Position numbers and translations under genes: made by a program. The notes under the pieces are model-generated. The model saw only the letters and a list, made by a program, of their open reading frames with translations. It made no database searches and was not told the DNA's origin. This document shows positions 21,344 to 60,757 of a stretch of 64,000 nt of DNA, in pieces; the first letter of the stretch is position 1; each line of letters opens with the position of its first letter. The stretch spans positions 832 to 64,831 of the forward strand of contig JAFQJB010000020.1 of the NCBI GenBank assembly GCA_017397305.1, in the 5' to 3' direction. Source of the DNA: Clostridia bacterium. GTDB taxonomy: Bacteria > Bacillota > Clostridia > Christensenellales > Borkfalkiaceae.

Positions 21344-21355
21344 AAGCTTTCTCCC

Positions 21356-33769: not shown

Positions 33770-33774
33770 AACAC

Positions 33775-33824: not shown

Positions 33825-33864
33825 ACTGCCATATCCTAACTTGACATGTTTTCCTCTATATGAC

Positions 33865-34182: not shown

Positions 34183-34255
34183 TATTTTTCTTTCATCCTT
34201 TGTTTCAAAATTTTCATTTTTTAGTTGTAATTTTTTAATGTGTTTTTCGCTTCCC

Positions 34256-34543: not shown

Positions 34544-34559
34544 TTTGCTATCCCCTTTT

Positions 34560-34787: not shown

Positions 34788-34951
34788 AAAAACACCCTCT
34801 ATATATATTATAACAAAAAAATATAGACAAAACTATGACAAGTGTAAAAGTTTTTAAATTTTACTTATTTTTTTTGATTTATAAGGGTTGTAAGTTTTTT
34901 GTCATAGTTCATTTGTTATAATTAAATAGAAAAGAAATCAAGGAGAAATAT

Positions 34952-35608: not shown

Positions 35609-35635
35609 AAATTAACTGATGTCTTTTAGTATTTA

Positions 35636-35686
35636 AAACAAAAAGTGAACAAACTCATCTTCCTTTCCAGGTTCGAATTTGTTCAC
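35636..35686 (-). terminator. hairpin plus U-run downstream of tRNA-Ser
   Basis: GTGAACAAA-N24-TTTGTTCAC, followed on the minus strand by TTTTTGTTT. Confidence 0.5.
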
Positions 35687-35689
35687 ATT

Positions 35690-35777
35690 TGGCGGAGAGG
35701 AGAGGATTTGAACCTCCGGTACGTTTCCGTACACACGCTTTCCAAGCGTGCACATTAGACCACTCTGACACCTCTCC
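35690..35777 (-). tRNA. tRNA-Ser (anticodon GGA), CCA encoded
   Basis: Manual fold: acceptor GGAGAGG/CCTCTCC, anticodon arm CACGC-TTGGAAA-GCGTG, long variable arm GTACG-GAAA-CGTAC, T arm GGAGG-TTCAAAT-CCTCT. One mismatch in the D stem. Confidence 0.9.
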
Positions 35778-35961
35778 GTGCCTAAAGTCCGCTAATTATT
35801 CTAATATATTTTCAAAATAAAAGCAAGTCAAATGTGCTTACATTTTAAAATTTAGGGCAAATTTTTTTGTCTTTTGCTTATTCTATTACAAGTACCGTCT
35901 TTACCCCTCTATTGACAAGGAGTTGCAATAATGGTATAATACGCGGGATAGGAGAAAATAT

Positions 35962-36819
35962 ATGATTGTACGAATGTTTAACCTTTGGTATTTTTTCTGG
36001 TTATTATTTGCCAGTGGAACCATTGTGGGTTTATATTTTTTACTGAGGAACAAATCACAAAAGACAAAAAAGTGGACGCTTTTTTCCATACTTTTATTCG
36101 CGCTTATTCTTCACTTTGTAAAACTGTTCTTCCCGCCGTATACCACCAATCAAGAAATTGCGCTTAGGGACAGCTGGTTTATCAATATCTGCGGTGCGAA
36201 CATTGCGCTCTTCCCCTTTTTGTTTTTATTTAAGAACAAATACGTCAAAGATTATATCTTTTACATGGGCATAATCGGTGGCGGGCTTGCCCTTTTATAC
36301 CCCACCGAAGCGCTTAACAAGACCATTGAAAACCCGCTGATTTTTGACACCATAAGATTCTATTTACACCACACCATTCTATTTGCAATTCCGCTTCTTA
36401 TGGTAATGCTTAAAGTTCACCAAATAAGTTATAAACGCATTTTATCTTGCCCCGTCGGGCTTCTTATCGTAATGCTGTTTATTATGCTAAATCAAGTATT
36501 GCAAAGTGAACTTGGCTTTATCCCTTTAAGAAAGGGCGACATCTTCAACATTGGCTACAAAAACACTTCGTTTATATGGGGACCGGGCGACGATTCGCTT
36601 GCGCAAATCTTCGTTATTTTCTGTCCTAAATTCTTTAGGGTAATTCCGTTTGGAGAGTTTGCTGGGCAAGAAAAGTTTTGGCCGTGGTTTTGGCTTATCA
36701 TTCCCGTGTTCATCTACCTTATCCCCTTTGCATTTATGCTGTCGATGATATTCGACCACAAAAAGTTTAGGGGCGACGTTGTAGCAATCTATAAAAAAAT
36801 CTTCAAAAAGACAAACTAA
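35962..36819 (+). CDS. integral membrane protein (YwaF/TIGR02206-like guess)
   Basis: 285 aa, about 7-8 TM segments. RBS AGGAGA. Confidence 0.6.
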   Translation: MIVRMFNLWYFFWLLFASGTIVGLYFLLRNKSQKTKKWTLFSILLFALILHFVKLFFPPYTTNQEIALRDSWFINICGANIALFPFLFLFKNKYVKDYIFYMGIIGGGLALLYPTEALNKTIENPLIFDTIRFYLHHTILFAIPLLMVMLKVHQISYKRILSCPVGLLIVMLFIMLNQVLQSELGFIPLRKGDIFNIGYKNTSFIWGPGDDSLAQIFVIFCPKFFRVIPFGEFAGQEKFWPWFWLIIPVFIYLIPFAFMLSMIFDHKKFRGDVVAIYKKIFKKTN

Positions 36820-48765: not shown

Positions 48766-48807
48766 AAACTCGCTAAACTAAAGTTTAGCGAGTTTTCTTT
48801 TTTTAAT
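48766..48807. terminator. bidirectional terminator
   Basis: AAACTCGCTAAAC-taaa-GTTTAGCGAGTTT followed by TCTTTTTTT. Confidence 0.75.
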
Positions 48808-48813: not shown

Positions 48814-50283
48814 TTACAACAAACCTATCATTAGGTTGCAAGCAAGTACGATAAGTACGAGTGCGATAGGATAGGTTGATGCGTATGCACCTGCAACGTC
48901 GTCCGTTTCAGCAGTATTGATAAGCGTGCCGAGTGCGGGAGTTGAAGTCATACCGCCAGTGATTGAACCGAGGTTGCTAAGAAGCGGAAGTTTTAAGAGT
49001 TTCTTGCCAAGGAAGAAACCAACAACCATGGGAAGAAGTGTCATTACTGCACCACCGAGGAAGCCCCAAGCAACTATTCTTCCGCCACCATTGCTTGCAA
49101 CTTGTGAAACCAAGTTAACACCACCGTCTACACCAGCACCGATGAGGAAGAGCATAAGTCCAAGTTCACGAAGAACTTTTGCAGAGTGTGCGGGAACTTC
49201 CAAAGAAAGCCTACCGATTCTACCAAAGTGACCGAATACGAGACACATAATGAGAACGCCACCAGTTGTGCCGAGTGAGAAGCAAGCGCCGTTATAACCC
49301 TTGCCAGTGAGCGGGATTTTAATCGCACCAATTAATAAACCAGAAACGATTGCAAGTGCCAAAGGCATAAGACCGAAGTCGTCACACTTAAAGAGTTTTT
49401 TGGTTGTTTTCTTTTCAGTGCTTGCAAGAACGTCGGGTTTTAAAAGTCCCCTTTCGTGTTCCATATTAGCCTTCATAAATTTGGGCATAAGTTGAACGAA
49501 AAGAACAACACCGATAACGCCGAAGGGATATGCAACTGCGTGACCGAGTGTTACCAGCCCCGCAGATTCCCCTGCAACTTCTAGTGCTGCAGAATATCCG
49601 GGGGTTGATGTGAGCGCACCAGACAAAATACCAGCAGAATATTCAGGACCGATTTCGGGAATAAGCGCAAACACAACTGCGGTAAGAGTACCAACCAAAA
49701 TGATTACGATACCCATAACGATATAGGTTTTGAAGTTTTTCTTTAAGTCTCTAAAGAATTTAGGTCCAGCAATGAAACCAACCGAGCCAACGAAAAGTAC
49801 CAAACCAACGTTTTGAAGCGCACTCTTATAGTAGGGCAAGTTGGTTGATGCTTTTTGAATAACCTCGTTATTTACTTTGTCAACGATTTCTGCTTGGAGA
49901 TGCAATGCGCCTAAAACGGGCATGTTTTCCGGAATAAGAGTACACAAAAAGCCGAACAAGATTGCAACCAAGAATACACCAGCAGTACCAAGTGATACGC
50001 CTTTAATAGTTACTCTACCAAGCAAATAGCCAAGCGCAGTTATAATAAAGATACCCACTAAGAATGCAGCGATACTGATAATGTTTGATATACCGAAAGT
50101 TGTTTTTTGGTAGTCACCAAACTTATCGTAAACGTCCTTGCCCCAAGTTGATGCAATAGCACACCAAACGGCAATACCAGCAACAACAACGAGAGCAATG
50201 GTTATCCAAAGCCATTTTAGGCTTTTCTTTTTAGGAGCAGGCACAAATTCGGTCTGTTCCGTTTGCAAGTTTTCCTTTTCCAT
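48814..50283 (-). CDS. AAE-family (YidE/YbjL/AspT/SucE-like) transporter lacking the central TrkA-C domains
   Basis: Duplicated GYLLGRVTIKGVSLGTAGVFLVAILFG and FSLGTTGGVLIMCLVFGHFGRIG permease halves, joined by a short loop. Confidence 0.65.
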   Translation of the reverse strand: MEKENLQTEQTEFVPAPKKKSLKWLWITIALVVVAGIAVWCAIASTWGKDVYDKFGDYQKTTFGISNIISIAAFLVGIFIITALGYLLGRVTIKGVSLGTAGVFLVAILFGFLCTLIPENMPVLGALHLQAEIVDKVNNEVIQKASTNLPYYKSALQNVGLVLFVGSVGFIAGPKFFRDLKKNFKTYIVMGIVIILVGTLTAVVFALIPEIGPEYSAGILSGALTSTPGYSAALEVAGESAGLVTLGHAVAYPFGVIGVVLFVQLMPKFMKANMEHERGLLKPDVLASTEKKTTKKLFKCDDFGLMPLALAIVSGLLIGAIKIPLTGKGYNGACFSLGTTGGVLIMCLVFGHFGRIGRLSLEVPAHSAKVLRELGLMLFLIGAGVDGGVNLVSQVASNGGGRIVAWGFLGGAVMTLLPMVVGFFLGKKLLKLPLLSNLGSITGGMTSTPALGTLINTAETDDVAGAYASTYPIALVLIVLACNLMIGLL

Positions 50284-50354
50284 TTTTTCTCCTTTAATTT
50301 ATGAAACTATATTTCATCTTTTCCCTATCACTATATACGATATAACAGTTTGCT

Positions 50355-50396
50355 ACCCGACGGCAAAAATGCCGTCGGGTAATTTTTACTTTTTCT
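50355..50396 (+). terminator. GC-rich hairpin plus T-tract with plus-strand polarity (opposite to both flanking genes)
   Basis: ACCCGACGGCA-aaaa-TGCCGTCGGGT followed by AATTTTTACTTTTTC. Confidence 0.5.
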
Positions 50397-50514: not shown

Positions 50515-52125
50515 TTAAACGTTGGGTTGCTTTGTATAGTTCGGCAACAATTGAGGTGACAACTTAGTTGCGTTAATACCAGCATCCTTTAATTCCTTAT
50601 CGAATGCTTTAACGTGGTCTAAGGTGAGTTCTTTAACCTCAACGTCTTTATAAATCTTACCTACGCTCTTACCTGCGTTTCTACCGAATACGATAATGTC
50701 GAGGAGAGAGTTACCCATAAGTCTATTTCTGCCGTGGATTCCCCCTACTGCCTCACCTGCAACGAAGAGGTTGGGAACGGTAGTGGTCATGCCGTCAGCC
50801 GAGATATCAAGTCCACCGTTTTGATAGTGGAGTGTGGGATAGATAAGAATGGGGTCTTTTCTAATATCGATGCCGTATTTACCGAACATGCGGAGCATTG
50901 CGGGAATACGTTTTTCGATAGTGCCTTCACCGTGAATAATATCAATCATCGGGGTGTCAAGCCATACGCCTTCACCATCGGTGGTCTTGATACCGTTGTT
51001 GCGTTTTTTGCATTCTCTAATGATAGAAGATGCGGTCACGTCACGGGTTTCAAGCGAGTAAACGAATGCTTCGCCGTCTTTATTTACGAGTTGTGCGCCG
51101 AGTGAACGAACTTTTTCGGTAACGAGTGCACCGAAGATTTGAGTGGGTTCAGCAACGCCAGTGGGGTGATATTGAAGGGTGTCAGCATAAAGGAGTTTTG
51201 CACCTGCTCTATAACCTAATACCAAGCCGTCAGCCGTTGCGCCGTAGTGGTTAGAGGTTGGGAAACCTTGATAGTGAAGTCTACCTGCACCACCAGTTGC
51301 AATGATAACGGTTTTTGCCTTTGCAACGTAAATGTCTTTGGTTTCCATATTGAGAAGAACTGCACCAGCCGCCTTGCCTTCTGTATCCTTAATAATTTCG
51401 ATAGCAGCGGTAAAGTCAACAACGGGGATTTGGCGGTTCAACACTTCGTCACGAAGGGTTCTCATAATTTCCGCACCCGAATAGTCCTTACAAGCGTGCA
51501 TACGTTTTCTACTAGTACCGCCACCGTGGGTGGTAATCATAGTGCCGTCTGCTTCCTTATCGAACATAACGCCGAGTTCGTTGAGCCATTTGATAGCATC
51601 GGGAGCATCGTTAACGAGCTTATATAAAAGTTCGTGCTTTGCAGCAAAGTGACCGCCACCGAAAGCGTCTAGATAGTGAATAGCGGGGCTATCGTTGGGT
51701 TTATCAGCCGCTTGAATTCCGCCCTCTGCCATCATGGTGTTTGCATCACCGATACGGAGTTTGGTTACCATCATAACGTTTGCGCCAGCATTGTGCGCTT
51801 CGATAGCAGCAGAAGAACCTGCACCACCGCCACCGATAACCAAAACGTCTACGTCGTAGTCGGGTTTAGAGAGGTCGATATCTAAATCGAGCACTCTTGA
51901 TTTACCTTGCAAAAGGTCAGCAAGTTCGTGCAATACTTTTCCGCCCTTGTTGGGACCAACTTTCAATTCTTCATAAGCAGAAGTTATGTAGTCGGGGTGG
52001 TTTTCTTGCAAAACCGTTTGCTTTTCGTCCGCAGTCATTCTTGCGAACAAGTTTTGAAGTCTTTGTTCTCTGGTCGCTTCGACCTTCTTCATTGAATCTA
52101 ATTGTTCTTGTGTATACTTATACAT
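50515..52125 (-). CDS. soluble fumarate reductase / succinate dehydrogenase-family flavoprotein (FrdA/TfrA-like, non-covalent FAD type)
   Basis: VLVIGGGGAGSSAA; ANTMMAEGG (Asn where FrdA has the FAD-linking His); LQYHPTG; TEKVRSLGAQLVNKDGE; HYQNGG; AGEAVGGIHGRNRLMGNSL. Confidence 0.8.
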   Translation of the reverse strand: MYKYTQEQLDSMKKVEATREQRLQNLFARMTADEKQTVLQENHPDYITSAYEELKVGPNKGGKVLHELADLLQGKSRVLDLDIDLSKPDYDVDVLVIGGGGAGSSAAIEAHNAGANVMMVTKLRIGDANTMMAEGGIQAADKPNDSPAIHYLDAFGGGHFAAKHELLYKLVNDAPDAIKWLNELGVMFDKEADGTMITTHGGGTSRKRMHACKDYSGAEIMRTLRDEVLNRQIPVVDFTAAIEIIKDTEGKAAGAVLLNMETKDIYVAKAKTVIIATGGAGRLHYQGFPTSNHYGATADGLVLGYRAGAKLLYADTLQYHPTGVAEPTQIFGALVTEKVRSLGAQLVNKDGEAFVYSLETRDVTASSIIRECKKRNNGIKTTDGEGVWLDTPMIDIIHGEGTIEKRIPAMLRMFGKYGIDIRKDPILIYPTLHYQNGGLDISADGMTTTVPNLFVAGEAVGGIHGRNRLMGNSLLDIIVFGRNAGKSVGKIYKDVEVKELTLDHVKAFDKELKDAGINATKLSPQLLPNYTKQPNV

Positions 52126-52136
52126 AACTCTTCCCC

Positions 52137-52811
52137 CTATTTCTCGATTTCTCTATTGTTATAGAGTTCTTTGAGTTCTTCGATAGGCTTATTCATAAGC
52201 GTTTCGATAAGTTCTACGTACTTGCCGTCTTCGATTTCTTTTACCCTATCGATAAGATGTTGAGTTTCAGGAGCCATATACTTGCCGTAAAGTCTTCTTG
52301 CAAGTTCAGCAACTTGGGGATGAGAAATACCAGCGGGACATCTTGAAGAGCAAACGCCACACATTACGCAGTCAAAAGATTCTTCCGCGCAGTTAGCATA
52401 GTCACCGCGTTGTGCGTATGCAATGTATTGCATAACGTTAAGTCCTTGCGTACAAGCCTTAGTACAAGCATTGCAACCTACGCACGCATAGATTTCGGGG
52501 TAAAGTTGCATCATGATTTGTTCGGTCGGCTTAATCTTTTCAATATCGTAAACTGATTTTACGAGGGGGAAGAAAGGAAGCGTTGCAACGTACATATCGT
52601 TTTCAACCTTTTGTTGACAAGCGAGGCACGCGTGCAATTCCCTATCGCCTTTGATACGGTAAATAGTTGAACATGCACCGCAGAAACCGTTTCTGCATCC
52701 GCAACCGCGAACGAGTTGGTATCCGGCATATTCCATTGCCTTCATAATAGTTAAACTTTCGGGCACTTGATATTTCTTACCGAAAAAATAAACGTTAACT
52801 AAATTTTCCAT
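52137..52811 (-). CDS. FrdB/SdhB-like iron-sulfur subunit
   Basis: N-terminal 2Fe-2S CGCRNGFCGACS..C, then CVGCNACTKAC and CVMCGVCSSRCP. Confidence 0.75.
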   Translation of the reverse strand: MENLVNVYFFGKKYQVPESLTIMKAMEYAGYQLVRGCGCRNGFCGACSTIYRIKGDRELHACLACQQKVENDMYVATLPFFPLVKSVYDIEKIKPTEQIMMQLYPEIYACVGCNACTKACTQGLNVMQYIAYAQRGDYANCAEESFDCVMCGVCSSRCPAGISHPQVAELARRLYGKYMAPETQHLIDRVKEIEDGKYVELIETLMNKPIEELKELYNNREIEK

Positions 52812-52825
52812 TTGTTTTCTCCTTA

Positions 52826-53653
52826 TTAATACTCGTTCGGCAATTCGTCGAGTTCGTCGAAACGGAATACCGGACCGTCTTTACATACATATTTTGAACC
52901 TACGTTACATCTTCCGCATTTACCAACACCGCACTTCATACGAAGCTCTAACGTCGTGTAAACTTGGGTCTTTTCAAAGCCTAGTGACCTAAGCCCTTCC
53001 AAAGTAAACTTAATCATAATAGGCGGACCGCAAAGAACTGCAATCTTATTGGTATCAAAGCCAAGTTCTTTAACGTAGTTAGGAACAAAACCAACGTGTC
53101 CGTCCCAACCTTCTTGTTCGCGGTCGATAGTTAAGTGAACGTTTACACCACTATCGGTCGCCCATTCGTTTATAATTTCTTGATAGTCAAGTAGGTCGTC
53201 TTTACTTCTTGAACCGTAAACGATATCGATTTTGCCGTATCTATCACGATAATGTCTGCAATAGTTAATTACAGAGCGGAGCGGTGCTAGACCAACGCCA
53301 CCTGCAACGAACAAAAGGTCTTTACCTGCAAACACGTCGTCAACGGGGAACGGATTGCCGTAAGGTCCGCGAACGGTAACGTTTTGACCGGGTTCAGCCG
53401 CGTGAAGCCAAGTGGTTACGCAACCGCATTTCTTAATAGAAAATTCCATATACTCGGTATTTGTGGGAGAGGACGTTATTGAAAACATCGCTTCGCCTAT
53501 ACCAGGGATAGAAAGCATTGCGCATTGACCGGGGCGGTGTTCAAAAAGTTTCTTACCTTCGGGTGAAACAACCCTAAAGGTTTTAATATCGGGGGTGTCT
53601 TGTCTAATCTCGGTTATAACGCCGAGTTTTGGGATTAAAGTTTCATTAATCAT
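52826..53653 (-). CDS. FAD/NAD(P)H-binding oxidoreductase with C-terminal 2Fe-2S (FlxA / AsrB / HydG-like)
   Basis: RPGQCAML, FVAGGVGLAP, and C-terminal CGVGKCGRCNVG. Confidence 0.75.
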   Translation of the reverse strand: MINETLIPKLGVITEIRQDTPDIKTFRVVSPEGKKLFEHRPGQCAMLSIPGIGEAMFSITSSPTNTEYMEFSIKKCGCVTTWLHAAEPGQNVTVRGPYGNPFPVDDVFAGKDLLFVAGGVGLAPLRSVINYCRHYRDRYGKIDIVYGSRSKDDLLDYQEIINEWATDSGVNVHLTIDREQEGWDGHVGFVPNYVKELGFDTNKIAVLCGPPIMIKFTLEGLRSLGFEKTQVYTTLELRMKCGVGKCGRCNVGSKYVCKDGPVFRFDELDELPNEY

Positions 53654-54671
53654 TTTCCTTACCTCCGAGAGTTTTCATAACCTTAACGATATTCATTGAT
53701 ATCGGGCACTTTGTAAGACAACGTCCGCAACCTACACAGCTGAACATTCCGTCGTTATTGTCGGGATAGTACACGAGTTTGTGCATAAATCTTTGACGGA
53801 AACGTTCCTTTTGCGATGCTCTTGAGTTGCCGTGAGCCATCAACGTGAAATCGCTATACATACAAGAGTCCCAACATCTAAAACGTTGAACACCCTCGTT
53901 TGTCTTAAAATCTTTAATGTCGTAGCATTGACAAGTCGGGCAAACGAAAGTACAAGTTCCACAACCTAAGCAGTGTGAAGAAAGCTCGTCCCACGCGGGT
54001 GAATCAAAGTATTCTTTGGTCTTGCCTGCGCCAAACTTTTCAGTAGTAACGTTACTTAGGGGAAGTTTTTCCATGATAGCGGAAATTTGTTTCTTTTGTT
54101 CTTCAACTGCCTTTCCGTCACAATCTTCAGTTATAGATGAGATTGCACTTAAAAGCTTTTCGCCCTTTTCGGTGTTTGCAAGAAGATATAAGTCAGTTTC
54201 GGTCTTCCACGCGGTTATATCGCCAGCGGGGTTTGCCGCATCGATACCGAAGGTCTTACAAAAACAAGTTTCGCTAGGTCTTCCGCAAGCGAGGGAAACG
54301 ATAACGCCCTTTTCCCTTCTAGATGCGTAATAACTATCAACGGGTTCGGAGAGGAACACTCTATCAAGAATTTCAAAACTCTTTACGTCGCACGCACGAA
54401 CGCCGAATACAACGAAGTCTTCTTTTTCTTGTCTATTGTCGATAATTTCGATATTCTTTCCTTCGGTCTTGAACTCCATAAGAGTTTCCATTTGAGGAAA
54501 GAAGAAATCTTTTGCACTTCTAACGGTGTTGAGCGCGTCGCTCATCTTAACACCTTCTTGCCAAAGTTTAAATGACGCACCGCCTTTGCCGTCAACGGGA
54601 ATATATAGTTTTGCGTTTTCCGCAATCAATGCAAACGCTTTATCTAAATTTGAAAGAGAAATTTTACGCAT
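53646..54671 (-). CDS. 4Fe-4S protein (FlxB / AsrA / HydB-like)
   Basis: CLGCGTCTFVCPTCQCYD and CVGCGRCLTKCP. Confidence 0.7.
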   Translation of the reverse strand: MRKISLSNLDKAFALIAENAKLYIPVDGKGGASFKLWQEGVKMSDALNTVRSAKDFFFPQMETLMEFKTEGKNIEIIDNRQEKEDFVVFGVRACDVKSFEILDRVFLSEPVDSYYASRREKGVIVSLACGRPSETCFCKTFGIDAANPAGDITAWKTETDLYLLANTEKGEKLLSAISSITEDCDGKAVEEQKKQISAIMEKLPLSNVTTEKFGAGKTKEYFDSPAWDELSSHCLGCGTCTFVCPTCQCYDIKDFKTNEGVQRFRCWDSCMYSDFTLMAHGNSRASQKERFRQRFMHKLVYYPDNNDGMFSCVGCGRCLTKCPISMNIVKVMKTLGGKEND

Positions 54672-55660
54672 TATTTATCCCCCTTATTAACTGCTTCGCT
54701 CGGTTCCAAGTCTTCCTTGGTGTAGTTAACGAGCGGTGCTCTGTTGCCAACTTCTTCACCAGCTTGGTAATCGCCGTAGAATCCGTTGATATCTTTAATG
54801 AATTTTCTATTGAGCAAGTGGAGCGGAATTTGTTGTGGGCACACCCTTGAACATTCACCGCAGTCGGTACAACGTCCTGCAACGTGGAATGCACGGATAA
54901 TGTGGAACATTTGCTCTTCAAAGCTGTTTGCAGCAGCTTTATTTTGAACGCCTGAGTTGGGGTTGTCGAACACGCACTTTTCACAAGTACATGCGGGGCA
55001 AACGTCACGGCAAGCGTTACAACGGATACAACGTGATAATTCGTTTTGCCAGAAAGCAAATCTTTCATCCGCCGTCATCTTTTCAAGCTCGTCAACTTGG
55101 TCGAAGCGATTTGAAGAAATAACTTCGCCGTCTTCACCGATAAGTTCGTCGTAAGCAACGTGCTTTTTGCTCTTACAGTTACGGCAACGTTCTGCCAAAA
55201 CTTCGGCTTTAGCGATTTCTTTAACGCCGTCGTAAAGGGTTTCAACCTTTAAGGTATCGGTAGTTGCGTCAACCGACACTATTCCGTCACCAAAAGCGTT
55301 CTTAATTTTTTTGATATCAACCATGCCGTCACAAGCAATGCCAACGACGTAAACTTTTTCACGGTCAAAGCGGTGCTCGGTTAAGAGTTGGTTAAAACTA
55401 TAAGTGTCGCAAGGCTTTAAGAACACAAGTGTTTTGCCTTCGCCCTTTTTAGTTTCTTTAATTAGGTATTTTGAGAAGTTTGCGCCCGAAAAATCGTCGA
55501 ACACAAAATCTTTCTTCATACTTTCAATATCGGTGAAAACCGCGGGTGTTTGGTCGTAAGAAAATTCACCTTTCTTTAGACCGAGAACTTTTGAAACAGT
55601 GCCGTTACTAAGAAGTTCTTCTGCTTTTGCGATAAGCACTTCACGAGTTATTTTTTGCAT
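54671..55660 (-). CDS. 4Fe-4S protein (FlxC-like)
   Basis: CIRCNACRDVCPACTC and CTDCGECSRVCP. Its stop overlaps the next start (TAATG). Confidence 0.6.
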   Translation of the reverse strand: MQKITREVLIAKAEELLSNGTVSKVLGLKKGEFSYDQTPAVFTDIESMKKDFVFDDFSGANFSKYLIKETKKGEGKTLVFLKPCDTYSFNQLLTEHRFDREKVYVVGIACDGMVDIKKIKNAFGDGIVSVDATTDTLKVETLYDGVKEIAKAEVLAERCRNCKSKKHVAYDELIGEDGEVISSNRFDQVDELEKMTADERFAFWQNELSRCIRCNACRDVCPACTCEKCVFDNPNSGVQNKAAANSFEEQMFHIIRAFHVAGRCTDCGECSRVCPQQIPLHLLNRKFIKDINGFYGDYQAGEEVGNRAPLVNYTKEDLEPSEAVNKGDK

Positions 55661-56082
55661 CTTAAGTCCTCCAATCTCTTATTTTCACCAAGAGCGGTTA
55701 CCGTTTTAACAAAGTCGTTCATGGTCGCTGCGAACTTTGCACCTTCAGCAGCCGATACCCACTCTACTCTAGTACGTTCTTTTTCGATACCCAAATAGTC
55801 GAGCATTGAAAAAAGTAGTGCCATTCTACGTCTTGTGTAATAGTTACCCGAAGTGTAGTGGCAGTCCCCTGGGTGACAACCGCAAAGGATAACCCCGTCC
55901 GCACCGCGTTGGAATGCGCGGAGAATGAACATCGGGTTAACACGGCAAGAACAAGGAACACGGATAACCTTTACTTCAGCGGGATACGCCAAACGGTTGC
56001 TACCTGCAAGGTCAGCACCCGCATACGAACACCAGTTACAACAAAAAGCTACGATTTTGGGTTTATATTCGTTTACTTGCAT
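55648..56082 (-). CDS. MvhD/FlxD-like protein (methyl-viologen-reducing hydrogenase delta subunit family)
   Basis: IVAFCCNWCSYAGADLAG...VIRVPCSCRV...CGCHPGDCHY. Confidence 0.85.
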   Translation of the reverse strand: MQVNEYKPKIVAFCCNWCSYAGADLAGSNRLAYPAEVKVIRVPCSCRVNPMFILRAFQRGADGVILCGCHPGDCHYTSGNYYTRRRMALLFSMLDYLGIEKERTRVEWVSAAEGAKFAATMNDFVKTVTALGENKRLEDLRCKK

Positions 56083-58067
56083 ATTGCGTCTACCTCCGCC
56101 ATAATTTGTTTGTTTGCAAATCCTTTAAGGTCCATAGCGCCTGACGGACAAGCAACCGTACAGCAACCGCATCCTTGACATATTGCTTCGTTAACTTGTG
56201 CTACGCGACGAATAAGCGTAGTTCTATTCGGCCCACGGAATTCTTTATCAGCATAAGTGATTGCGCCGTAAGGACAAACCTTTTCACAAGAAGAACAACC
56301 GTTACACATCAATTCGTCGGACTGTGCAACGCAGGGGTTACCAGTAAGCTTATCTTTAGCAAGAAGGCCAATAACCTTTGCTGCCGCTGCACCCGCTTGA
56401 GATACCGTTTCAGGAATATCTTTAGGTCCTTGGCAAGCACCAGAGAGGAATATACCTGCCGTGGGGCTTTCTACCGGACGAAGTTTGGGGTGCGCTTCGG
56501 TAAAGAAGTCGTTTGTGTCCATACTTGCGGTGAGCATTGTTGCGAGCGGTCTTGCCGATTTATCAGGCTCGATTGCAGCCGCCAAAACAACTAGGTCTGC
56601 TTCTATCTTTAATTGTTTATTTGCGATAAGGTCGGAACCTTGAACGATAAGTTTGTTACCTTCGGGTGAAACCTTACCAACCATACCTTTAATATAATGT
56701 ACGCCGTATTCTTCAGCCGCTCTACGATAGAACTCGTCAAATTGTTTACCGGGTGTTCTAACGTCGATATAGAAAACGGTTACGTCGGTATCGGGATATT
56801 TATCTCTCGTTAGCATTGCGTGTTTTGCGGTATACATACAGCAAATCTTCGAGCAATACTCTTTACCTTTTTCTGCACATGACGCGCAACGCGAACCAAC
56901 GCATTGAACGAACACGATTTTGTGGGGGTGTACGCCGTCTGACGGACGGAGAAGTTTACCAGCGGTAGGACCAGCCGCGTTCATCAAACGTTCAAATTCT
57001 AACGAAGTGATAACGTCTTTGCTTTGGCTGTATGCAAATTCGTCAAACTTGTCCATACTGATAGGATTAAATCCTGTTGCAGCAACGATTGCGCCGTACT
57101 TTTCTTCAACGAATTCGTCCTTTTGGGTATAGTCGATTGCCTTTGCCGTACAAACTTTTGCACAAACACCGCACTTGCCGTTCTTTAACATATTGCAGTA
57201 ATCCGCGTCGATTGTTGCAATCTTAGGAACTGCTTGAGCGAACGGAATATAGATTGCACGTTTATTATCCATTCCCAAGTTAAAGTCGTTAGGAACTTTT
57301 TTCATCGGGCACTTTTCGGTACAAAGTCCGCAACCCGTACAAACGTCTTCCTTTACGTAACGTGCTTTCTTTCTAATCTTAACGTCGAAGTTACCTACAA
57401 AGCCTTTAACTTCTTCAACTTCGCTGTAAGAGAAAATTCTAATTTTTTCGTGTTGAGCAACGTCAACCATCTTAGGCGTCAAAATACAAGCCGCACAGTC
57501 AAGCGTCGGGAAGGTTTTATCAAGTTGAGCCATTTTACCACCGATGGTGGGCTTTTTCTCAACGATATCAACTTCAAAGCCTGCATCTGCAATGTCGAGC
57601 GCCGTTTGAATACCAGCAATACCGCCACCGATAACGAGTGCACGTTTGGTAACGGGACTCTCACCCGGTTTTAGCGGTGCGTTGAGGTTAACCTTTGCAA
57701 TAGCCGTTCTACCTAAAACGATAGCCTTTTCGGTACCCTCTTGCATATCTTTATGTATCCAAGAACATTGTTCACGAATGTTTGCAATTTCCACCATATA
57801 GGGATTGAGTCCGGCTGCGGCAGCAGTCTTTCTAAAGGTGGCTTCGTGCATTCTCGGTGAACAAGAACATACTACGATACCAGTGAGGTTGTGTTCTTTA
57901 ATAGCGTCTTTTATTAGTTGTTGACCCGCTTGTGAACACATATATTGATAGTTGGCGGAATGAACAACACCCGGTTCGCTCTTCAATGCTTCAGCAACCT
58001 TAACAACGTCAACAGTGCCCGCGATGTTACTTCCGCACCAACATACGAATACTCCTATTCTCTGCAT
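56073..58067 (-). CDS. hdrA: heterodisulfide reductase subunit A-like flavoprotein
   Basis: 664 aa. N-terminal Cys motif VFVCWCG, FAD motif VIGGGIAGIQ, and several CxxCxxCxxxCP ferredoxin motifs. Confidence 0.85.
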   Translation of the reverse strand: MQRIGVFVCWCGSNIAGTVDVVKVAEALKSEPGVVHSANYQYMCSQAGQQLIKDAIKEHNLTGIVVCSCSPRMHEATFRKTAAAAGLNPYMVEIANIREQCSWIHKDMQEGTEKAIVLGRTAIAKVNLNAPLKPGESPVTKRALVIGGGIAGIQTALDIADAGFEVDIVEKKPTIGGKMAQLDKTFPTLDCAACILTPKMVDVAQHEKIRIFSYSEVEEVKGFVGNFDVKIRKKARYVKEDVCTGCGLCTEKCPMKKVPNDFNLGMDNKRAIYIPFAQAVPKIATIDADYCNMLKNGKCGVCAKVCTAKAIDYTQKDEFVEEKYGAIVAATGFNPISMDKFDEFAYSQSKDVITSLEFERLMNAAGPTAGKLLRPSDGVHPHKIVFVQCVGSRCASCAEKGKEYCSKICCMYTAKHAMLTRDKYPDTDVTVFYIDVRTPGKQFDEFYRRAAEEYGVHYIKGMVGKVSPEGNKLIVQGSDLIANKQLKIEADLVVLAAAIEPDKSARPLATMLTASMDTNDFFTEAHPKLRPVESPTAGIFLSGACQGPKDIPETVSQAGAAAAKVIGLLAKDKLTGNPCVAQSDELMCNGCSSCEKVCPYGAITYADKEFRGPNRTTLIRRVAQVNEAICQGCGCCTVACPSGAMDLKGFANKQIMAEVDAICK

Positions 58068-58081
58068 TTGTACTCTCCTTT

Positions 58082-58471
58082 TTACTTAGTGTATTTCCTA
58101 AACGCACTTACGATTGCTTGTTGGGGCAAATCTTCGTCCAAAAGTTCAGGAATATCGTCTGGCTTTAAGTGATTGTTGCCTTGCTGTCTAACAACCATAA
58201 GGCGAACTGCTTCAACGAGTTTAGCAGGTTCAACTCCCCTCGGGCATCTGTCGATACAAGCAAAGCAAGAAAGACAACGATAGATTGATTTTGATTTTAG
58301 TAGCGGTTCGATATCACCCGTTTCAACCATATACACGAATTGATGGGGATGATATTCCATTTCGTCATACGCAGGGCAAGTTCCAGAACATTTTCCGCAT
58401 TTCATGCACTTTCTAGGGTTAACCTTGCTTATGCGAACGATTTCATCACATACGTTTTTGGAATTTTCCAT
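58082..58471 (-). CDS. hdrC: heterodisulfide reductase subunit C-like
   Basis: CMKCGKCSGTCP and CLSCFACIDRCP. Confidence 0.8.
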   Translation of the reverse strand: MENSKNVCDEIVRISKVNPRKCMKCGKCSGTCPAYDEMEYHPHQFVYMVETGDIEPLLKSKSIYRCLSCFACIDRCPRGVEPAKLVEAVRLMVVRQQGNNHLKPDDIPELLDEDLPQQAIVSAFRKYTK

Positions 58472-58475
58472 TGTT

Positions 58476-59252
58476 CTACTCCTTTATCCCAAACGCTTCT
58501 GCAAGCAATTCGGTGATGTATACTACCGGCAAATCACTGCCGTTCTTTTCTAAGTTGTACTTACAAAGCGGACAAGCGGTTACGATAACTTCTGCGCCGT
58601 TGAGTTTTGCGTTGTCAGAAACCCTCTTACTCTTTGCCTTTGCAAGTTCCTTGCTCTCTAAGGTGATATATCCACCGCAACATTCGTTACGGAAAGCGTA
58701 ACTTACGGGCTCACCGCCGATTGCACGGATTAAATCTTCCATAATGGTGGGGTTTTCCACGTCGTCCATAGCCATAACTTTACCAGGACGGAGAAGAAGA
58801 CAACCATAATAGGGAGCAATCTTTTTGCCTGCGAGAGAGTTAACAACCTTTTCCTTAACCTTTTCGTAACCGATTTTGTCACGAAGAAGTTCTAAGTAAT
58901 GGATAACTTCGGTCTCGCCATTATACTTATCTGGTGCAATGTATTGGTTTACACGGAAATTAAAGCCGTCATCCGTTTGCATTGCATTGTTGGTTTGTTT
59001 TAACACGTTGTGACAAGCCGAACATACCGAAACTAGCGGTTGACCTTTGTCGTTTGCGTGTTTTAACGCGCGCACTGAAGAAAGTTTTGTAGCAATCTCG
59101 TCGTTAGCGGTTGTAAACACACCGCCACAGCATTGCCAATTATCAATTTCTTCAAGCGTAACGCCAAGCACTTCCGCACACTTTCTAGCATACTCGTCAA
59201 GCACTTTAGCTTTAGTCTTTAACGTACAGCCGGGAAAATAACTTACTTTCAT
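58476..59252 (-). CDS. hdrB: heterodisulfide reductase subunit B-like (two CCG domains)
   Basis: YFPGCTL, QCCGG, YYGCLL, ECCGG and CPLC. Confidence 0.85.
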   Translation of the reverse strand: MKVSYFPGCTLKTKAKVLDEYARKCAEVLGVTLEEIDNWQCCGGVFTTANDEIATKLSSVRALKHANDKGQPLVSVCSACHNVLKQTNNAMQTDDGFNFRVNQYIAPDKYNGETEVIHYLELLRDKIGYEKVKEKVVNSLAGKKIAPYYGCLLLRPGKVMAMDDVENPTIMEDLIRAIGGEPVSYAFRNECCGGYITLESKELAKAKSKRVSDNAKLNGAEVIVTACPLCKYNLEKNGSDLPVVYITELLAEAFGIKE

Positions 59253-59268
59253 TTATCTGTCGCTCCTT

Positions 59269-60645
59269 TTATACCATTTGTTCGGGATGGAACACCTCGT
59301 CAAATCTTTCTTCTGTCAAGAAGCCAAGCTGAACGCAAGCTTCTTTTAGTGAAATGTTGTCTTTATATGCTTTCTTTGCAGTCTTTGCTGCATTTTCATA
59401 TCCAATGTAGGGGTTCAATGCGGTAACGAGCATGAGTGAGTTTTGAAGGTTGTGGTCCATCTTTTCACGATTTGCCTTAATACCTACCGCACAGTTGTTG
59501 TTGAACGAAACGATTGCTTCTGCCAAAAGTCTTGCCGATTGCAAGAAGTTATAAATACATACGGGCATGAATACGTTTAATTCAAAGTTACCTTGTGATG
59601 CTGCCATGCTAACCGCAACGTCGTTACCCATAACTTGAACGGCAACCATTGTAACCGCTTCGCATTGAGTGGGGTTAACTTTACCTGGCATGATTGAAGA
59701 GCCGGGTTCGTTTTCGGGAATGAAGATTTCACCAAGACCGTCTCTAGGTCCACTTGCAAGCCAACGTACGTCGTTTGCAATCTTCATCATGTCGCAAGCG
59801 AGTGCTTTAATCGCGCCGTGTGCGAACACCAATTCGTCTTTACTGGTAAGTGCGTGAAATTTGTTGCCAGCGGTAACAAACTTTTTGCCGGTGATTTCAG
59901 AAACCTTTTCAGCAACCAAGGTATCAAAACCTTTAGGTGCGTTAAGTCCAGTACCTACTGCCGTACCGCCAAGAGCGAGTTCAGCGAGCGGTTTAAGGGA
60001 AAGTTTAAGAAGTTCAACGTCGCGTTCCAAACTCGTTCTCCAACCGCTGATTTCTTGACCGAACTTAATCGGGGTTGCGTCTTGAAGGTGGGTTCTTCCG
60101 CACTTAACGATTTCGCCTTCTTCCTTTTCTAAACGCTTAAACGTTGAGATAAGAAGTTCAACCGCGGGGATAAGTTTATCTTCAAGTGCGGTTACTGCAG
60201 AAATGTGCATTGCAGTGGGGAAAGTATCGTTTGAAGATTGGCTCATATTGATATCGTCGTTGGGGTGCAAAATCTTTTCGCCCGCAATTTCGTTACCGCG
60301 GTTTGCAATAACTTCGTTTGCGTTCATGTTAGATTGAGTGCCAGAGCCAGTTTGCCATACAACGAGTGGGAAGTGGTCGTTTAGAGAACCGCTGATAACT
60401 TCGTCGCAAGCCGTTACGATTGCTTGAAGTTTTTTATCGGTCATCTTTTCAGGACGAAGCTCGTGGTTTGCAAGAGCAGCCGCCTTTTTGAGAACACCGA
60501 ATGCTTTGGTTATTTCGCGTGGCATAATTTCAATACCTTCGCCAATCTTAAAGTTCTCGTGACTTCTTTGAGTTTGCGCTGCCCAATATCTATCGGCAGG
60601 AACTTTTACCTCACCCATTGAGTCGTGTTCAATACGATAATCCAT
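59269..60645 (-). CDS. fumC: class II fumarate hydratase
   Basis: GSSIMPGKVNPTQCE signature. Start set at MDYRIEHDSMGEV (RBS AAGGAGA). Confidence 0.9.
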   Translation of the reverse strand: MDYRIEHDSMGEVKVPADRYWAAQTQRSHENFKIGEGIEIMPREITKAFGVLKKAAALANHELRPEKMTDKKLQAIVTACDEVISGSLNDHFPLVVWQTGSGTQSNMNANEVIANRGNEIAGEKILHPNDDINMSQSSNDTFPTAMHISAVTALEDKLIPAVELLISTFKRLEKEEGEIVKCGRTHLQDATPIKFGQEISGWRTSLERDVELLKLSLKPLAELALGGTAVGTGLNAPKGFDTLVAEKVSEITGKKFVTAGNKFHALTSKDELVFAHGAIKALACDMMKIANDVRWLASGPRDGLGEIFIPENEPGSSIMPGKVNPTQCEAVTMVAVQVMGNDVAVSMAASQGNFELNVFMPVCIYNFLQSARLLAEAIVSFNNNCAVGIKANREKMDHNLQNSLMLVTALNPYIGYENAAKTAKKAYKDNISLKEACVQLGFLTEERFDEVFHPEQMV

Positions 60646-60728
60646 AATCAATCTCCTTTTTAGGTTTTCGCCAGTAAAATCAAGGCTAAAAAACCGTATA
60701 AATCGTCATTATAAATTCTTTTTGCTTA

Positions 60729-60757
60729 ATTATAACAAATTTCGCGCCGTTTGTAAA
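60729..60757 (-). promoter_or_regulatory. promoter of the fumC-hdr-flx-frd operon
   Basis: Minus strand reads TTTACA-17 nt-TATAAT. The -35/spacer region contains the inverted repeat ACAAA-N10-TTTGT. Confidence 0.5.

Follow-up and report, generated by a model that had tools for sequence, protein, structure and literature searches.

The closest described counterpart of the gene cluster analysed here is the 'succinate operon' of Pseudoclostridium (Hungateiclostridium) thermosuccinogenes (CDQ83_RS03315-RS03365), for which a coupling of fumarate reductase to ferredoxin reduction via Flx-Hdr has been proposed (PMC7282089). The same operon was put forward as bifurcating, at least as cited in that paper, in a 2019 preprint (10.20944/preprints201912.0288.v1). 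It is highly expressed and co-regulated approximately 4-fold in this succinate producer (PMC7282089), a case built on genomics and transcriptomics only. NADH-driven bifurcation to ferredoxin has also been proposed for FlxABCD-HdrABC of Desulfovibrio vulgaris (Ramos et al. 2015, as summarized in PMC7282089), and a thiol:fumarate reductase, TfrAB, is known from Methanothermobacter (Heim et al. 1998, as cited in PMC6315080). Both sets of genes meet in Endoriftia, a tubeworm symbiont, and in Thioflavicoccus mobilis, where flxABCD-hdrABC is interspersed with tfrAB in rTCA clusters and Flx-Hdr was proposed to hand electrons straight to fumarate reductase (PMC6315080, PMC11636981); tfrAB is not co-regulated with the remainder of the cluster (PMC11636981). 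These hosts are autotrophic rTCA Gammaproteobacteria with korABCD also interspersed; the likeness to our locus was drawn at the level of gene content.

In Moorella thermoacetica, hdrCBA-mvhD is reportedly encoded and purified with the methylene-THF reductase MetVF. This is a clostridial precedent for Hdr feeding a non-thiol, carbon-substrate reductase, but its terminal enzyme is MetFV and it has no Flx, whereas the present locus combines FrdAB with Flx. In the type E succinate:quinone oxidoreductase or MFR (SdhABE), SdhB is stably associated with the CCG protein SdhE. That enzyme is periplasm-facing or membrane-associated, quinol-linked and equipped with covalent FAD, whereas the proteins described below are soluble, have Asn instead of the His that binds FAD covalently, and come with an HdrA/Flx module.

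The window, i.e. the whole stretch of 64,000 nucleotides that was analysed, belongs to a gut or rumen Clostridia MAG lineage that is 96% identical to Clostridiales bacterium SIG385 and is not P. thermosuccinogenes. The ORF list recovered all ten genes of the preliminary description in the same order on the minus strand (fumC, hdrB, hdrC, hdrA, mvhD, flxC-, flxB-, flxA-, frdB- and frdA-like), and Pfam and NCBIfam matches bore out the domains given there. With their flanking elements they are:

60729-60757, minus strand: sigma-70-type promoter 5' of fumC (TTTACA-17-TG-TATAAT)
59269-60645, minus strand: fumC, class II fumarate hydratase, 458 aa (TIGR00979 fumC_II)
58476-59252, minus strand: HdrB-like protein with two CCG domains, 258 aa (PF02754, two stretches)
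58082-58471, minus strand: HdrC-like protein, 2x[4Fe-4S], 129 aa (Fer4_17/Fer4_8)
56073-58067, minus strand: HdrA, FAD/[4Fe-4S] flavoprotein, candidate for electron bifurcation, 664 aa (alignment to 5odc_A)
55648-56082, minus strand: MvhD/FlxD-type [2Fe-2S] connector, 144 aa (PF02662 FlpD, 185 bits)
54671-55660, minus strand: FlxC-like Fe-S protein, 329 aa (4Fe-4S dicluster domains at 207-278)
53646-54671, minus strand: FlxB-like Fe-S protein, 341 aa (PF17179 Fer4_22, 107 bits)
52826-53653, minus strand: FlxA-like NAD(P)H-binding FAD/[2Fe-2S] subunit, 275 aa (FAD_binding_6, NAD_binding_1 and DHODB_Fe-S_bind)
52137-52811, minus strand: FrdB-like protein, [2Fe-2S] and 2x[4Fe-4S], 224 aa (Fer2_4 at 4-77, Fer4_9 at 109-161, cysteine pattern)
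50515-52125, minus strand: FrdA-like flavoprotein, non-covalent FAD type, 536 aa (best NCBIfam match TfrA)
50354-50381, no strand assigned: GC-rich 12-bp hairpin between the frdA-like and permease genes (terminator-type search, listed on the plus strand)
48814-50283, minus strand: permease of the AspT/YidE/YbjL (Asp-Al_Ex) family, 489 aa (family match)

The ten genes form a genuine, tightly packed single operon, as judged from a single strong promoter, junctions with no more than 16 nt of gap or overlap and a GGAG-type ribosome-binding site 6-10 nt from the ATG of each gene. From fumC to the frdA-like gene, the ORF coordinates give junctions of +16, +4, +14, -10 (hdrA and mvhD), -13, -1, -8, +14 and +11 nt, exactly the spacing reported before. 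The start of fumC is probably ATG 60645, with a GGAG site 7 nt upstream; the ORF list extends it to TTG 60651. The promoter matches 11 of 12 consensus positions, carries the extended TG and is the top-scoring site in the 14.5 kb between 48000 and 62500. Matches inside the operon reach 9/12 each, promoter-like sites in the region are fewer than expected from shuffles (16 observed, 21.8 expected), and a search within the operon found no minus-strand terminator-like site, so that the single promoter ahead of fumC and the absence of internal signals claimed earlier both held up. As the hairpin lacks a U-tract on the minus strand, it could be a weak terminator or 3'-end stabiliser at most. None of the ten operon proteins has a transmembrane-like segment (highest Kyte-Doolittle 19-residue mean 1.53, versus 2.77 for the permease downstream).

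The P. thermosuccinogenes operon has the same order of fumC, seven Flx-Hdr genes and two fumarate reductase genes. In gene lengths, the level at which the two operons were compared, frdA measures 1602 nt there and 1611 nt here, frdB 675 nt in both with a gap of approximately 11 nt in both, hdrB 783 versus 777 nt, fumC 1365 versus 1383 nt, and the overlapping flxA-to-hdrA block 5347 versus 5242 nt. The following gene differs, encoding an 82-aa hypothetical protein there and the 489-aa permease here. The idea of a bifurcating Hdr/Flx fumarate reductase is thus not new, and the novelty implied by the preliminary description was overstated, since operon and hypothesis had already appeared (PMC7282089). 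Its statement that no characterised complex is known agrees with our literature search, which found no biochemical evidence for the complex, for ferredoxin reduction or for its stoichiometry. D. vulgaris FlxABCD-HdrABC, as far as the summary cited above describes it, is built from the same seven kinds of protein (FlxA, which binds NAD(P)H, a pair of Fe-S proteins, MvhD-like FlxD and HdrABC). Here, however, the genes run in inverted order (hdrBCA-mvhD-flxCBA) and are joined in one operon with fumC and frdBA, and the high-potential acceptor would be fumarate via FrdAB instead of the DsrC disulfide.

With the methanogen MvhADG-HdrABC complex (5ODC) the locus shares a full-length HdrA that aligns end to end with the Methanothermococcus thermolithotrophicus protein (5odc_A, 700 bits) and retains all cluster cysteines and both ferredoxin-type domains, as well as MvhD, the two CCG motifs of HdrB and the two [4Fe-4S] motifs of HdrC. 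The cysteine pattern of the HdrB-like protein (C-X31-CC-X34-C-X2-C and C-X39-CC-X34-C-X2-C) confirms both CCG motifs noted before, and the HdrC-like protein has two CX2CX2CX3C motifs (Cys 22/25/28/32 and 66/69/72/76). Unlike in the methanogen complex, where H2 is the donor via MvhAG, the proposed donor is NAD(P)H via Flx, the substrate CoM-S-S-CoB is absent, and HdrB and HdrC are shorter and score under the equivalog cutoffs. The HdrC-like protein reaches 61.7 bits on TIGR03290 (cutoff 160). The HdrB-like protein gives 115 bits against the HdrB chain 8rvv_B and scores slightly higher on the MFR SdhE model (149 bits) than on the HdrB model (137 bits), both under cutoff. FlxB-like is akin to sulfhydrogenase beta/AsrA (ShyB, 184 bits, under cutoff), FlxA-like to HydG/AsrB (233 bits, under cutoff), and FlxC-like shares 24% identity (E 6e-21) with the FrhB_FdhB_C-type protein encoded directly after mvhD in the Hdr-Frd clusters of Archaea. 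FumC, at 719 bits, exceeds its equivalog cutoff of 664.75. Since no Hdr, Flx or Frd subunit does so, function can be transferred at the family level only.

The FrdA-like protein aligns to the TfrA model with 335 bits (cutoff 718) up to model position 426 of 546, and PF02910, the C-terminal SdhA/FrdA domain, gave no match, a feature that the preliminary description had not mentioned. Its FAD-binding domain begins at residue 93, which leaves the N-terminal extension of approximately 90 aa that had been described. It thus differs at both ends from TfrA, the nearest named family, which likewise has non-covalent FAD according to the source cited above. Asn stands opposite the FAD-linking His45 of E. 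coli SdhA, which, with the absence of transmembrane-like segments, upholds the earlier assignment to a soluble fumarate-reductase type. The catalytic motifs were also rightly recognized: counterparts of H242, T254, E255, R286, H354 and R399, all six SdhA/FrdA catalytic residues, are kept. In the tree the clade separates from NadB in 100/100 bootstraps, and identity to cutoff-passing TfrA is 39-41%. By sequence, the protein represents a distinct clade of putative fumarate reductases closest to TfrA/SdhA, a phylogenetic placement that had been called for. Its AlphaFold model is poor (pLDDT 63.8). The FrdB-like protein aligns at its N-terminus to TfrB model positions 19-94 and has no CCG domain by domain search or cysteine pattern. 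The single TfrB model is tiled by the FrdB-, HdrC- and HdrB-like proteins, so that the Fe-S and CCG parts of TfrB correspond to three separate proteins here, with a bifurcating-type HdrA/Flx module attached. No thiol substrate, as TfrAB has, is evident. We counted both this tiling and the score on SdhE, the CCG subunit docking on SdhB in MFR, in favour of an Hdr-Frd unit.

The operon is conserved across hundreds of gut Clostridia species: in a collection with one genome per species, at least 591 stretches carry a confirmed frdA-like gene. According to the survey proposed earlier, 50 of 52 related loci have the complete gene set in collinear order, with fumC leading in 50/52, even where the protein identity of FlxB, FlxC and HdrB drops to 48-60%. 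Archaeal MAGs carry an N-extended FrdB-FrdA pair after hdrC-hdrB (FrdB identity 52-56%), but with other donor modules: hdrA-mvhD-mvhG-mvhA in an Asgard MAG, where the [NiFe] Mvh hydrogenase MvhAG of the methanogen complex is paired with the same FrdBA; hdrA, an HdrA-like protein of approximately 1000 aa, mvhD and an FrhB-like protein in two more loci; and an hdrA::mvhD fusion in one additional locus. This near-invariant synteny and the archaeal clusters with different donors support the functional link of FrdAB to Hdr/Flx suggested before, and the swapping of donor modules argues for a physical Hdr-Frd unit and for a role of the expensive Hdr insert beyond electron transport. In Bathyarchaeota, a homologue with 54% identity sits after malic enzyme and class I fumarase, so that fumarase adjoins frdA-type genes in two domains of life. 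Counting against the reading favoured below, some FrdAB homologues with no Hdr nearby occur in Bathyarchaeota (only a CCG protein, 8 kb off), in Prochlorococcus and as one fused FrdB-FrdA protein in P0122.

We favour, at a probability of roughly 60%, an Hdr/Flx-coupled, bifurcating and quinone-independent fumarate reductase on a malate-to-succinate branch. In this soluble, quinone-free branch, FumC would make fumarate, which would be reduced at the non-covalent FAD of the FrdA-like protein with electrons from the FrdB-like Fe-S clusters. That fumarate is the substrate is supported by the fumC score, the six catalytic residues, the Bathyarchaeota neighbours and the placement on the TfrA/SdhA side. 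Electrons would pass from NAD(P)H, be it NADH or NADPH, to FlxA (FAD, 2Fe-2S), the Fe-S clusters of FlxB/FlxC, the MvhD 2Fe-2S cluster and the FAD of HdrA, where pairs would be split. The downhill electron would run via HdrC and the HdrB CCG clusters directly to FrdB/FrdA and fumarate (+30 mV), presumably within a physical complex, and the uphill electron via the HdrA ferredoxin domains to ferredoxin as the putative second acceptor. The net reaction, 2 NAD(P)H + fumarate + oxidised ferredoxin -> 2 NAD(P)+ + succinate + reduced ferredoxin, would have a standard free energy change of approximately -49 kJ/mol. Its reduced ferredoxin would be consumed by a ferredoxin-dependent hydrogenase or Rnf, users that do not belong to the operon. 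A monomeric group B [FeFe] hydrogenase gene adjoins it here and in approximately 6 of 55 relatives; we counted this neighbour towards a ferredoxin-linked role beyond that of a wire. No rnf genes were seen within this window. The permease is a candidate succinate or C4-dicarboxylate transporter that may export succinate, and its gene, at most 2.5 kb 3' of the frdA-like gene in 43 of 55 related loci with enough flank, is probably a loosely attached eleventh operon member.

It is possible, albeit rather unlikely in our estimate, that the system is a plain soluble NAD(P)H:fumarate oxidoreductase in which Flx-MvhD-Hdr serves only as a long electron path or a regulatory scaffold and ferredoxin plays no part. 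To our knowledge, ferredoxin reduction has never been demonstrated for Moorella HdrABC-MvhD-MetFV, and Hdr modules are therefore no proof of bifurcation. Transfer from NAD(P)H to fumarate is thermodynamically downhill for all electrons, and an NADH-dependent fumarate reductase has simply been assumed for a gut Clostridium (PMC12773636). Homologous FrdBA pairs of marine Gammaproteobacteria (46% identity) have one NuoF-like subunit as their only partner, a finding that cuts both ways: such pairs apparently function with so little, and the seven-subunit insert would thus be unnecessary for plain NADH:fumarate reduction. Yet these seven additional Fe-S/flavin subunits are kept in 50/52 loci, the full-length HdrA retains both ferredoxin-type domains and all of its cluster motifs, and Hdr recurs in Archaea with three other donor modules; a plain oxidoreductase would also forfeit approximately 68 kJ per mol fumarate.

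A relay of two enzymes appears less probable still. Besides ferredoxin, Flx-HdrABC would reduce some disulfide, either of a low-molecular-weight thiol or of a DsrC-like protein, and the diffusible thiol would be re-oxidised by a thiol:fumarate reductase of the Tfr type. In methanogens the HdrB CCG motifs are the disulfide-reducing active site and no relay, and their retention in the HdrB-like protein leaves room for a thiol intermediate. Methanogen TfrAB works through a thiol, Flx-Hdr electrons have been described as going to 'ferredoxin (and thiols)' (PMC7282089), and a DsrC-like carrier is among the options in PMC11636981. However, with no CCG domain in FrdB, FrdAB itself lacks a site to oxidise thiols, the one HdrB would need to both make and consume the thiol, and the operon has no candidate carrier gene. 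Nor do we know of CoM or CoB synthesis in Clostridia. Least of all do we expect a substrate other than fumarate (L-aspartate as for NadB, or a urocanate/acrylate-type enoate), with fumC there for other reasons. The FrdA-like protein is atypical at both termini and under every equivalog cutoff, the NadB model gives 266 bits, flavocytochrome c/UrdA-type enzymes match too, and the closest outgroup, of approximately 400 aa, gets much the same score from the NadB as from the TfrA model. Against this, TfrA is the top-scoring model for 4/4 clade members scanned, approximately 47-75 bits over the best NadB model, which, like the bootstraps, speaks against an aspartate oxidase. Moreover, the flavoprotein has an obligate SdhB-like partner, also known fused to it, and a fumarase neighbour in Bacteria and Archaea, and the organism with the matching published operon is a succinate producer whose fumarate reductase, according to the authors, is this enzyme (PMC7282089).

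On the preferred reading, a bifurcating Hdr/Flx-coupled fumarate reductase, the operon probably gives quinone-free anaerobes an energy gain from succinate production.

Ten consecutive minus-strand ORFs occupy 50515-60757 in the ORF listing of the window, in the order fumC, hdrB, hdrC, hdrA, mvhD, flxC-like, flxB-like, flxA-like, frdB-like and frdA-like. From their coordinates the junctions measure +16, +4, +14, -10, -13, -1, -8, +14 and +11 nt, which bears out the gaps and overlaps given in the preliminary description. A GGAG-type Shine-Dalgarno sequence lies 6-10 nt 5' of an ATG in all ten genes and in the downstream permease gene. For fumC the likely start is the ATG at 60645; the mechanical ORF listing gives a TTG at 60651. 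The signals and neighbouring genes considered here are the following:

Signals and neighbouring genes of the operon in the window
60757-60729, minus strand: promoter-like site TTTACA-17-(TG)TATAAT, 11/12 positions, the only strong one in 48.0-62.5 kb
frdA-permease spacer, 231 nt: contains a 12-bp GC-rich hairpin at 50354-50381
3' of this spacer: permease gene, AspT/YidE/YbjL family, 489 aa
47323-48750, plus strand: monomeric group B1 [FeFe] hydrogenase (TIGR04105, 566 bits versus a cutoff of 450), convergent with the permease gene

A single promoter 5' of fumC and the lack of internal terminators had been claimed, and both points hold: the remaining promoter-like sites match only 9/12 positions, and no terminator-like site was found on the minus strand within the operon. 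The 16 promoter-like sites in 48.0-62.5 kb are fewer than the shuffle mean of 21.8. An Rfam scan of the entire window revealed no riboswitch or leader near the operon, its sole match being a tRNA at 35693-35777 (minus strand). This tRNA gene lies in a stretch of low GC content (32000-36000; 0.29-0.35 versus ~0.41 elsewhere) that may be an acquired island, and an arginine biosynthesis cluster at 5258-13175 (minus strand; OTCase, acetylornithine aminotransferase, ArgJ, argininosuccinate lyase and synthase) is unrelated to the operon. The hairpin at 50354-50381 is strong; on the minus strand an A-rich run precedes it and no U-tract follows, and on the plus strand it has a T-tract, yet no plausible plus-strand gene runs into it. 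It may act in attenuation or in 3'-end stabilisation. Between the convergent hydrogenase and permease genes, a perfect 13-bp hairpin with T-runs on both strands (48766-48795) looks like a bidirectional terminator.

In a one-genome-per-species collection, the presence of the frdA-like gene was confirmed for at least 591 stretches (591 of the first 600 matches). Among the matches listed, its carriers belong for the most part to Clostridia MAGs from gut and rumen (Christensenellaceae, Ca. Scatosoma, Oscillospiraceae, Acutalibacteraceae), and the closest is Clostridiales bacterium SIG385 with 96% identity. Synteny was sampled in the best 80 of these at least 591 loci, 52 of which had sufficient upstream DNA. 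In this survey of co-occurrence, of the kind proposed in the preliminary description, all ten genes are collinear on a single strand in 50 of the 52 loci; the other two lack fumC only and have unrelated genes upstream. Because median identities to the window are 60-66% for FlxB, FlxC, HdrB and HdrC and 76-86% for the other six products, the gene order has been held despite substantial divergence. The permease gene is found at most 2.5 kb downstream of frdA in 43 of 55 loci.

At the protein level, FumC scores above the class II fumarase equivalog cutoff of NCBIfam (719 versus 664.75 bits). HdrA is full length; its FAD site is present and no [4Fe-4S] cysteine motif is missing, those of the inserted and C-terminal ferredoxin domains included. 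Its residues 3-661 align with residues 5-648 of 5odc_A, the bifurcating HdrA of Methanothermococcus thermolithotrophicus whose structure has been solved, at 700 bits and with every cysteine motif in the alignment kept. The cysteine pattern of the HdrB-like protein comprises the two CCG motifs previously ascribed to it (C9-X31-CC-X34-CXXC and C151-X39-CC-X34-CXXC), and the HdrC-like protein carries two CX2CX2CX3C motifs, i.e. two [4Fe-4S] sites. The NCBIfam equivalog cutoffs for CoB-CoM heterodisulfide reductase are not reached (HdrA 792 versus 1100, HdrB 137 versus 345, HdrC 62 versus 160 bits). As for the FlxABCD module, the FlxA-like protein has the FAD, NAD(P)H and [2Fe-2S] domains (FAD_binding_6 PF00970, NAD_binding_1 PF00175, DHOD-B-type 2Fe-2S PF10418), and MvhD, a clear FlpD-family protein (PF02662, 185 bits), provides an MvhD-like FlxD. 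The FlxB-like protein is clearly of the sulfhydrogenase beta/AsrA type (ShyB 184 bits, Fer4_22); the FlxC-like protein shows only ferredoxin-type (Fer4) domains in Pfam and a weak AsrA match (20.9 bits), and the mutual similarity of the two is marginal (E 1e-5). Since no Hdr, Flx or Frd subunit reaches an NCBIfam equivalog cutoff, function can be transferred at the family level only.

The FrdB-like protein (224 aa) combines an SdhB-type 2Fe-2S N-domain with an 8-Cys dicluster, and neither domain search nor cysteine pattern revealed a CCG domain in it. In the FrdA-like flavoprotein (536 aa) the FAD_binding_2 core spans residues 93-474, and the C-terminal SdhA/FrdA domain (PF02910) is absent. 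An alignment to E. coli SdhA (1nek_A) and M. smegmatis Sdh1 (7d6v_A) places an Asn at the position of the FAD-linking His45 of E. coli SdhA, whereas the catalytic His, Thr-Glu, Arg, His and Arg for fumarate/succinate are kept, both in agreement with the preliminary description. With no linking His, and with no membrane-helix-like hydrophobic stretch and hence no transmembrane segment found among the ten products, the system does not conform to a membrane-bound quinol:fumarate reductase or succinate dehydrogenase. An AlphaFold2 model of the flavoprotein (27 close homologues; mean pLDDT 63.8, pTM 0.66) was poor and was set aside for reading the fold and the N-terminal extension. A pair of 538 and 224 aa at 20669-22972 (minus strand) was considered as a second FrdAB and rejected, being a DUF1538 membrane protein and a P-II-domain protein that coincide in size. 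Overall, the operon is confirmed as it was first observed, in its ORFs, junctions, promoter, domains and motifs.

One alternative considered for the flavoprotein is an aspartate oxidase (NadB). A homologue search against 1.84 billion cluster representatives revealed a distinct N-extended clade (homologues P0121, P0122, P0128, P0131-P0134, P0142 and P0158) with 40-61% identity over the core. TfrA is the top NCBIfam model for all four members scanned (the window protein, P0121, P0128 and P0134; 322-350 bits), with matches that lie far below the cutoff of 718 and are confined to the N-terminal ~420 model positions. The window protein itself reaches 335 bits over positions 6-426 of 546, so it is not a full-length TfrA equivalog. 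The top NadB model falls 47-75 bits below TfrA in the four members, and the window protein scores 266 bits against the NadB equivalog, short of its cutoff of 452.75. Among full-length proteins outside the clade, TfrA-like and actinobacterial SdhA-like ones come nearest, and one of these exceeds the TfrA cutoff and has ~40% identity; two NadB sequences that pass their own cutoff share 35-37%. In a small neighbour-joining tree of the core, based on simple distances and with two NadB sequences only, the N-extended clade joins a ~400-aa 'short' group, and both are split from NadB in 100/100 bootstraps, so that the clustering with aspartate oxidases named beforehand as an argument against a fumarate reductase did not appear. 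Monophyly of the N-extended clade is recovered in 43/100 bootstraps; one 'short' member, P0194, is a truncated actinobacterial-type SdhA, and the bootstrap for the grouping of the clade with the ~400-aa sequences is uninformative. From model scores, tree, the dedicated Fe-S partner and the fumarase context we reject the NadB reading. It is very probable that the ten genes form an operon serving a soluble branch of fumarate reduction.

A published counterpart is the 'succinate operon' of Pseudoclostridium thermosuccinogenes, which includes fumC, the fumarate reductase (RS03325-20) and a small hypothetical protein, and whose genes are all highly expressed with a ~4-fold joint change (PMC7282089). 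Its equivalence to the window operon is judged by published gene order, lengths and annotation: gene composition and order are the same, and by published coordinates the spacing is close, with a frdB-frdA gap of ~11 nt in both, and lengths agree within ~2% except for hdrC (324 nt in P. thermosuccinogenes versus 390 nt in the window) (PMC7282089). Tubeworm symbionts and Thioflavicoccus mobilis have flxABCD-hdrABC interspersed with tfrAB in their rTCA clusters, and these Flx-Hdr proteins were independently proposed to shuttle electrons straight to fumarate reductase (PMC6315080, PMC11636981); Tfr genes syntenic with Hdr-like complexes have been reported in archaeal MAG studies (PMC9635834). TfrAB differs in that TfrB fuses the SdhB-like Fe-S part to two CCG domains, whereas the window has CCG on the separate HdrB-like protein, and in that TfrA has a C-terminal domain that the window flavoprotein lacks. 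Our literature search found no purification or activity assay of such a complex, in agreement with the statement that none had been characterised.

The association of the reductase with Hdr proteins extends to other genomes, where homologous FrdB-FrdA pairs occur in different surroundings:

Loci with homologous FrdB and FrdA
L082, Asgard MAG GCA_052584985.1: hdrA-mvhD-mvhG-mvhA ([NiFe] hydrogenase)-protease-hdrC-hdrB-frdB-frdA
L085 (second locus of the same Asgard MAG) and L084 ('Halobacteria archaeon' MAG): hdrC-hdrB-hdrA-~1000-aa HdrA-like-mvhD-FrhB_FdhB_C-type-frdB-frdA
L083, archaeal-branch MAG GCA_964603675.1: hdrC-hdrB (CCG)-frdB-frdA beside a divergent hdrA::mvhD fusion
L081, Bathyarchaeota genome: malic enzyme-class I fumarase alpha/beta-frdB-frdA
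L086, 9366-12891, plus strand, marine Gammaproteobacteria metagenome contig: frdB-frdA-NuoF-like (Complex1_51K), N-extended FrdA with 46% identity, no Hdr
L087, 8001-10357, plus strand, Prochlorococcus sp. MIT 1201 CP138947.1: N-extended frdA and frdB, no redox partner genes nearby
L088, 5250-7433, plus strand, bacterial MAG GCA_054283745.1: P0122, a 727-aa FrdB::FrdA fusion

The P0121 branch is archaeal (Bathyarchaeota, Asgardarchaeia, 'Halobacteria archaeon' MAG) and 57% identical to the window protein, N-extension included. The hdrA of L082 (2617-4539, plus strand) is full length, and over 657 aa its product shares 52% identity with the window HdrA; the gene sits in a 2-kb stretch without a called gene directly upstream of mvhD and may have been overlooked through recoding or a gene-calling gap. 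Between hdrA and mvhD, L084 (4820-7753) and L085 (4612-7611) encode a protein that is ~980-1000 aa long and consists of HdrA-like parts in duplicate. Together with the FrhB_FdhB_C-type protein, which is 24% identical to the window FlxC-like protein (E 6e-21), it may form the donor module there. The occurrence of N-extended FrdA/FrdB in Prochlorococcus is unexpected in an oxygenic phototroph, and the fusion in L088 has unrelated neighbours, with no Hdr or Flx within its 7.7-kb contig.

Fumarate as the substrate is supported by the fumarase or malic enzyme genes that adjoin the pair in two domains of life. As HdrBC accompanies FrdBA with at least three differing electron-input modules, a functional Hdr-Frd unit is supported, and we consider it probable that Frd works physically with Hdr/Flx. 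It is important to note the candidate for a simple soluble NADH:fumarate reductase in L086: if one NuoF-like subunit is enough for an NADH-linked form, the complete HdrA/MvhD/Flx set of the Clostridia can be argued to do something extra, and bifurcation is the obvious candidate that we infer. The archaeal variants, Asgard MAGs included, point to an old, modular Hdr-Frd unit.

In the proposed mechanism, NAD(P)H would reduce the FAD of FlxA, and single electrons would pass from its 2Fe-2S cluster via the FlxB/FlxC clusters and the 2Fe-2S cluster of MvhD to the FAD of HdrA. The fully reduced HdrA flavin would send one electron through HdrC, the CCG clusters of HdrB, FrdB and the FAD of FrdA to fumarate, while the second would reach ferredoxin by way of the ferredoxin domains of HdrA. 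For the step between HdrB and FrdB, the sequences favour a direct wire rather than a thiol that diffuses: FrdB lacks the CCG domain needed to re-oxidise a thiol, FrdB, HdrC and HdrB jointly tile a single TfrB model, and the HdrB-like protein scores equally well on the SdhE and HdrB models, SdhE being the CCG protein seated on SdhB in methylmenaquinol:fumarate reductase. From textbook potentials (NAD -320 mV, fumarate +33 mV, ferredoxin ~-420 mV), the reaction 2 NADH + fumarate + oxidised ferredoxin to 2 NAD+ + succinate + reduced ferredoxin is calculated to yield ~-49 kJ/mol. Reverse operation, i.e. succinate oxidation with confurcation to NAD+, was rejected, because the calculated mean of ~-450 and +30 mV lies well above -320 mV.

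The adjoining group B hydrogenase would be a ready sink for reduced ferredoxin; this type has been postulated to be ferredoxin-dependent in gut bacteria (PMC12773636). In ~6 of 55 related loci a close homologue (66-70% identity) neighbours the operon, and in four of these (L025, L032, L033 and L039) the gene follows frdA by ~0.7 kb on the same strand, with no permease match. No rnf genes were found in the surveyed part of the window.

The interpretation offered in the preliminary description stands as a well-supported hypothesis whose key step, bifurcation to ferredoxin, is still inferred; we assign it a probability of roughly 0.55-0.6. The bifurcating hypothesis is already known, having been in print since 2019 (in the literature searched, the 2019 preprint is cited by PMC7282089 only), and the window operon is a member of this published kind from a gut-type Clostridia lineage. 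What is added here is the breadth of conservation, over hundreds of species, the definition of an N-extended, C-terminally truncated FrdA clade, and the cross-domain swapping of donor modules, which strengthens the case for an Hdr-Frd machine; the practical value is a clearer comparative case for a biochemical test of bifurcation. Tentatively, and at slightly less than even odds, the window operon may belong to a family of soluble, Hdr-dependent fumarate reductases that is modular in build and spans domains of life, in which N-extended FrdA/FrdB docks on HdrBC and HdrA bifurcates from swappable donors. These would be NAD(P)H through Flx for the gut and rumen Clostridia, H2 through MvhAG for Asgard archaea and an FrhB-like/HdrA-like module for other archaea.

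Should the mechanism hold, fumarate would be added to the high-potential acceptors by which ferredoxin reduction is driven (crotonyl-CoA, caffeyl-CoA, pyruvate and heterodisulfide), and energy conservation during succinate formation in quinone-less Clostridia would be explained. With at least 591 stretches carrying the operon, mostly in gut and rumen MAGs, it could matter for succinate and H2 fluxes in the gut, and also for the engineering of succinate producers. Such a modular Hdr-Frd family, if true, would represent flavin-based electron bifurcation of a biochemically new class, in which fumarate serves as the high-potential acceptor. It would provide organisms that have neither quinones nor cytochromes with a 'fumarate respiration' via ferredoxin and Rnf or hydrogenase, and could be a main succinate route in hundreds of gut Clostridia species.
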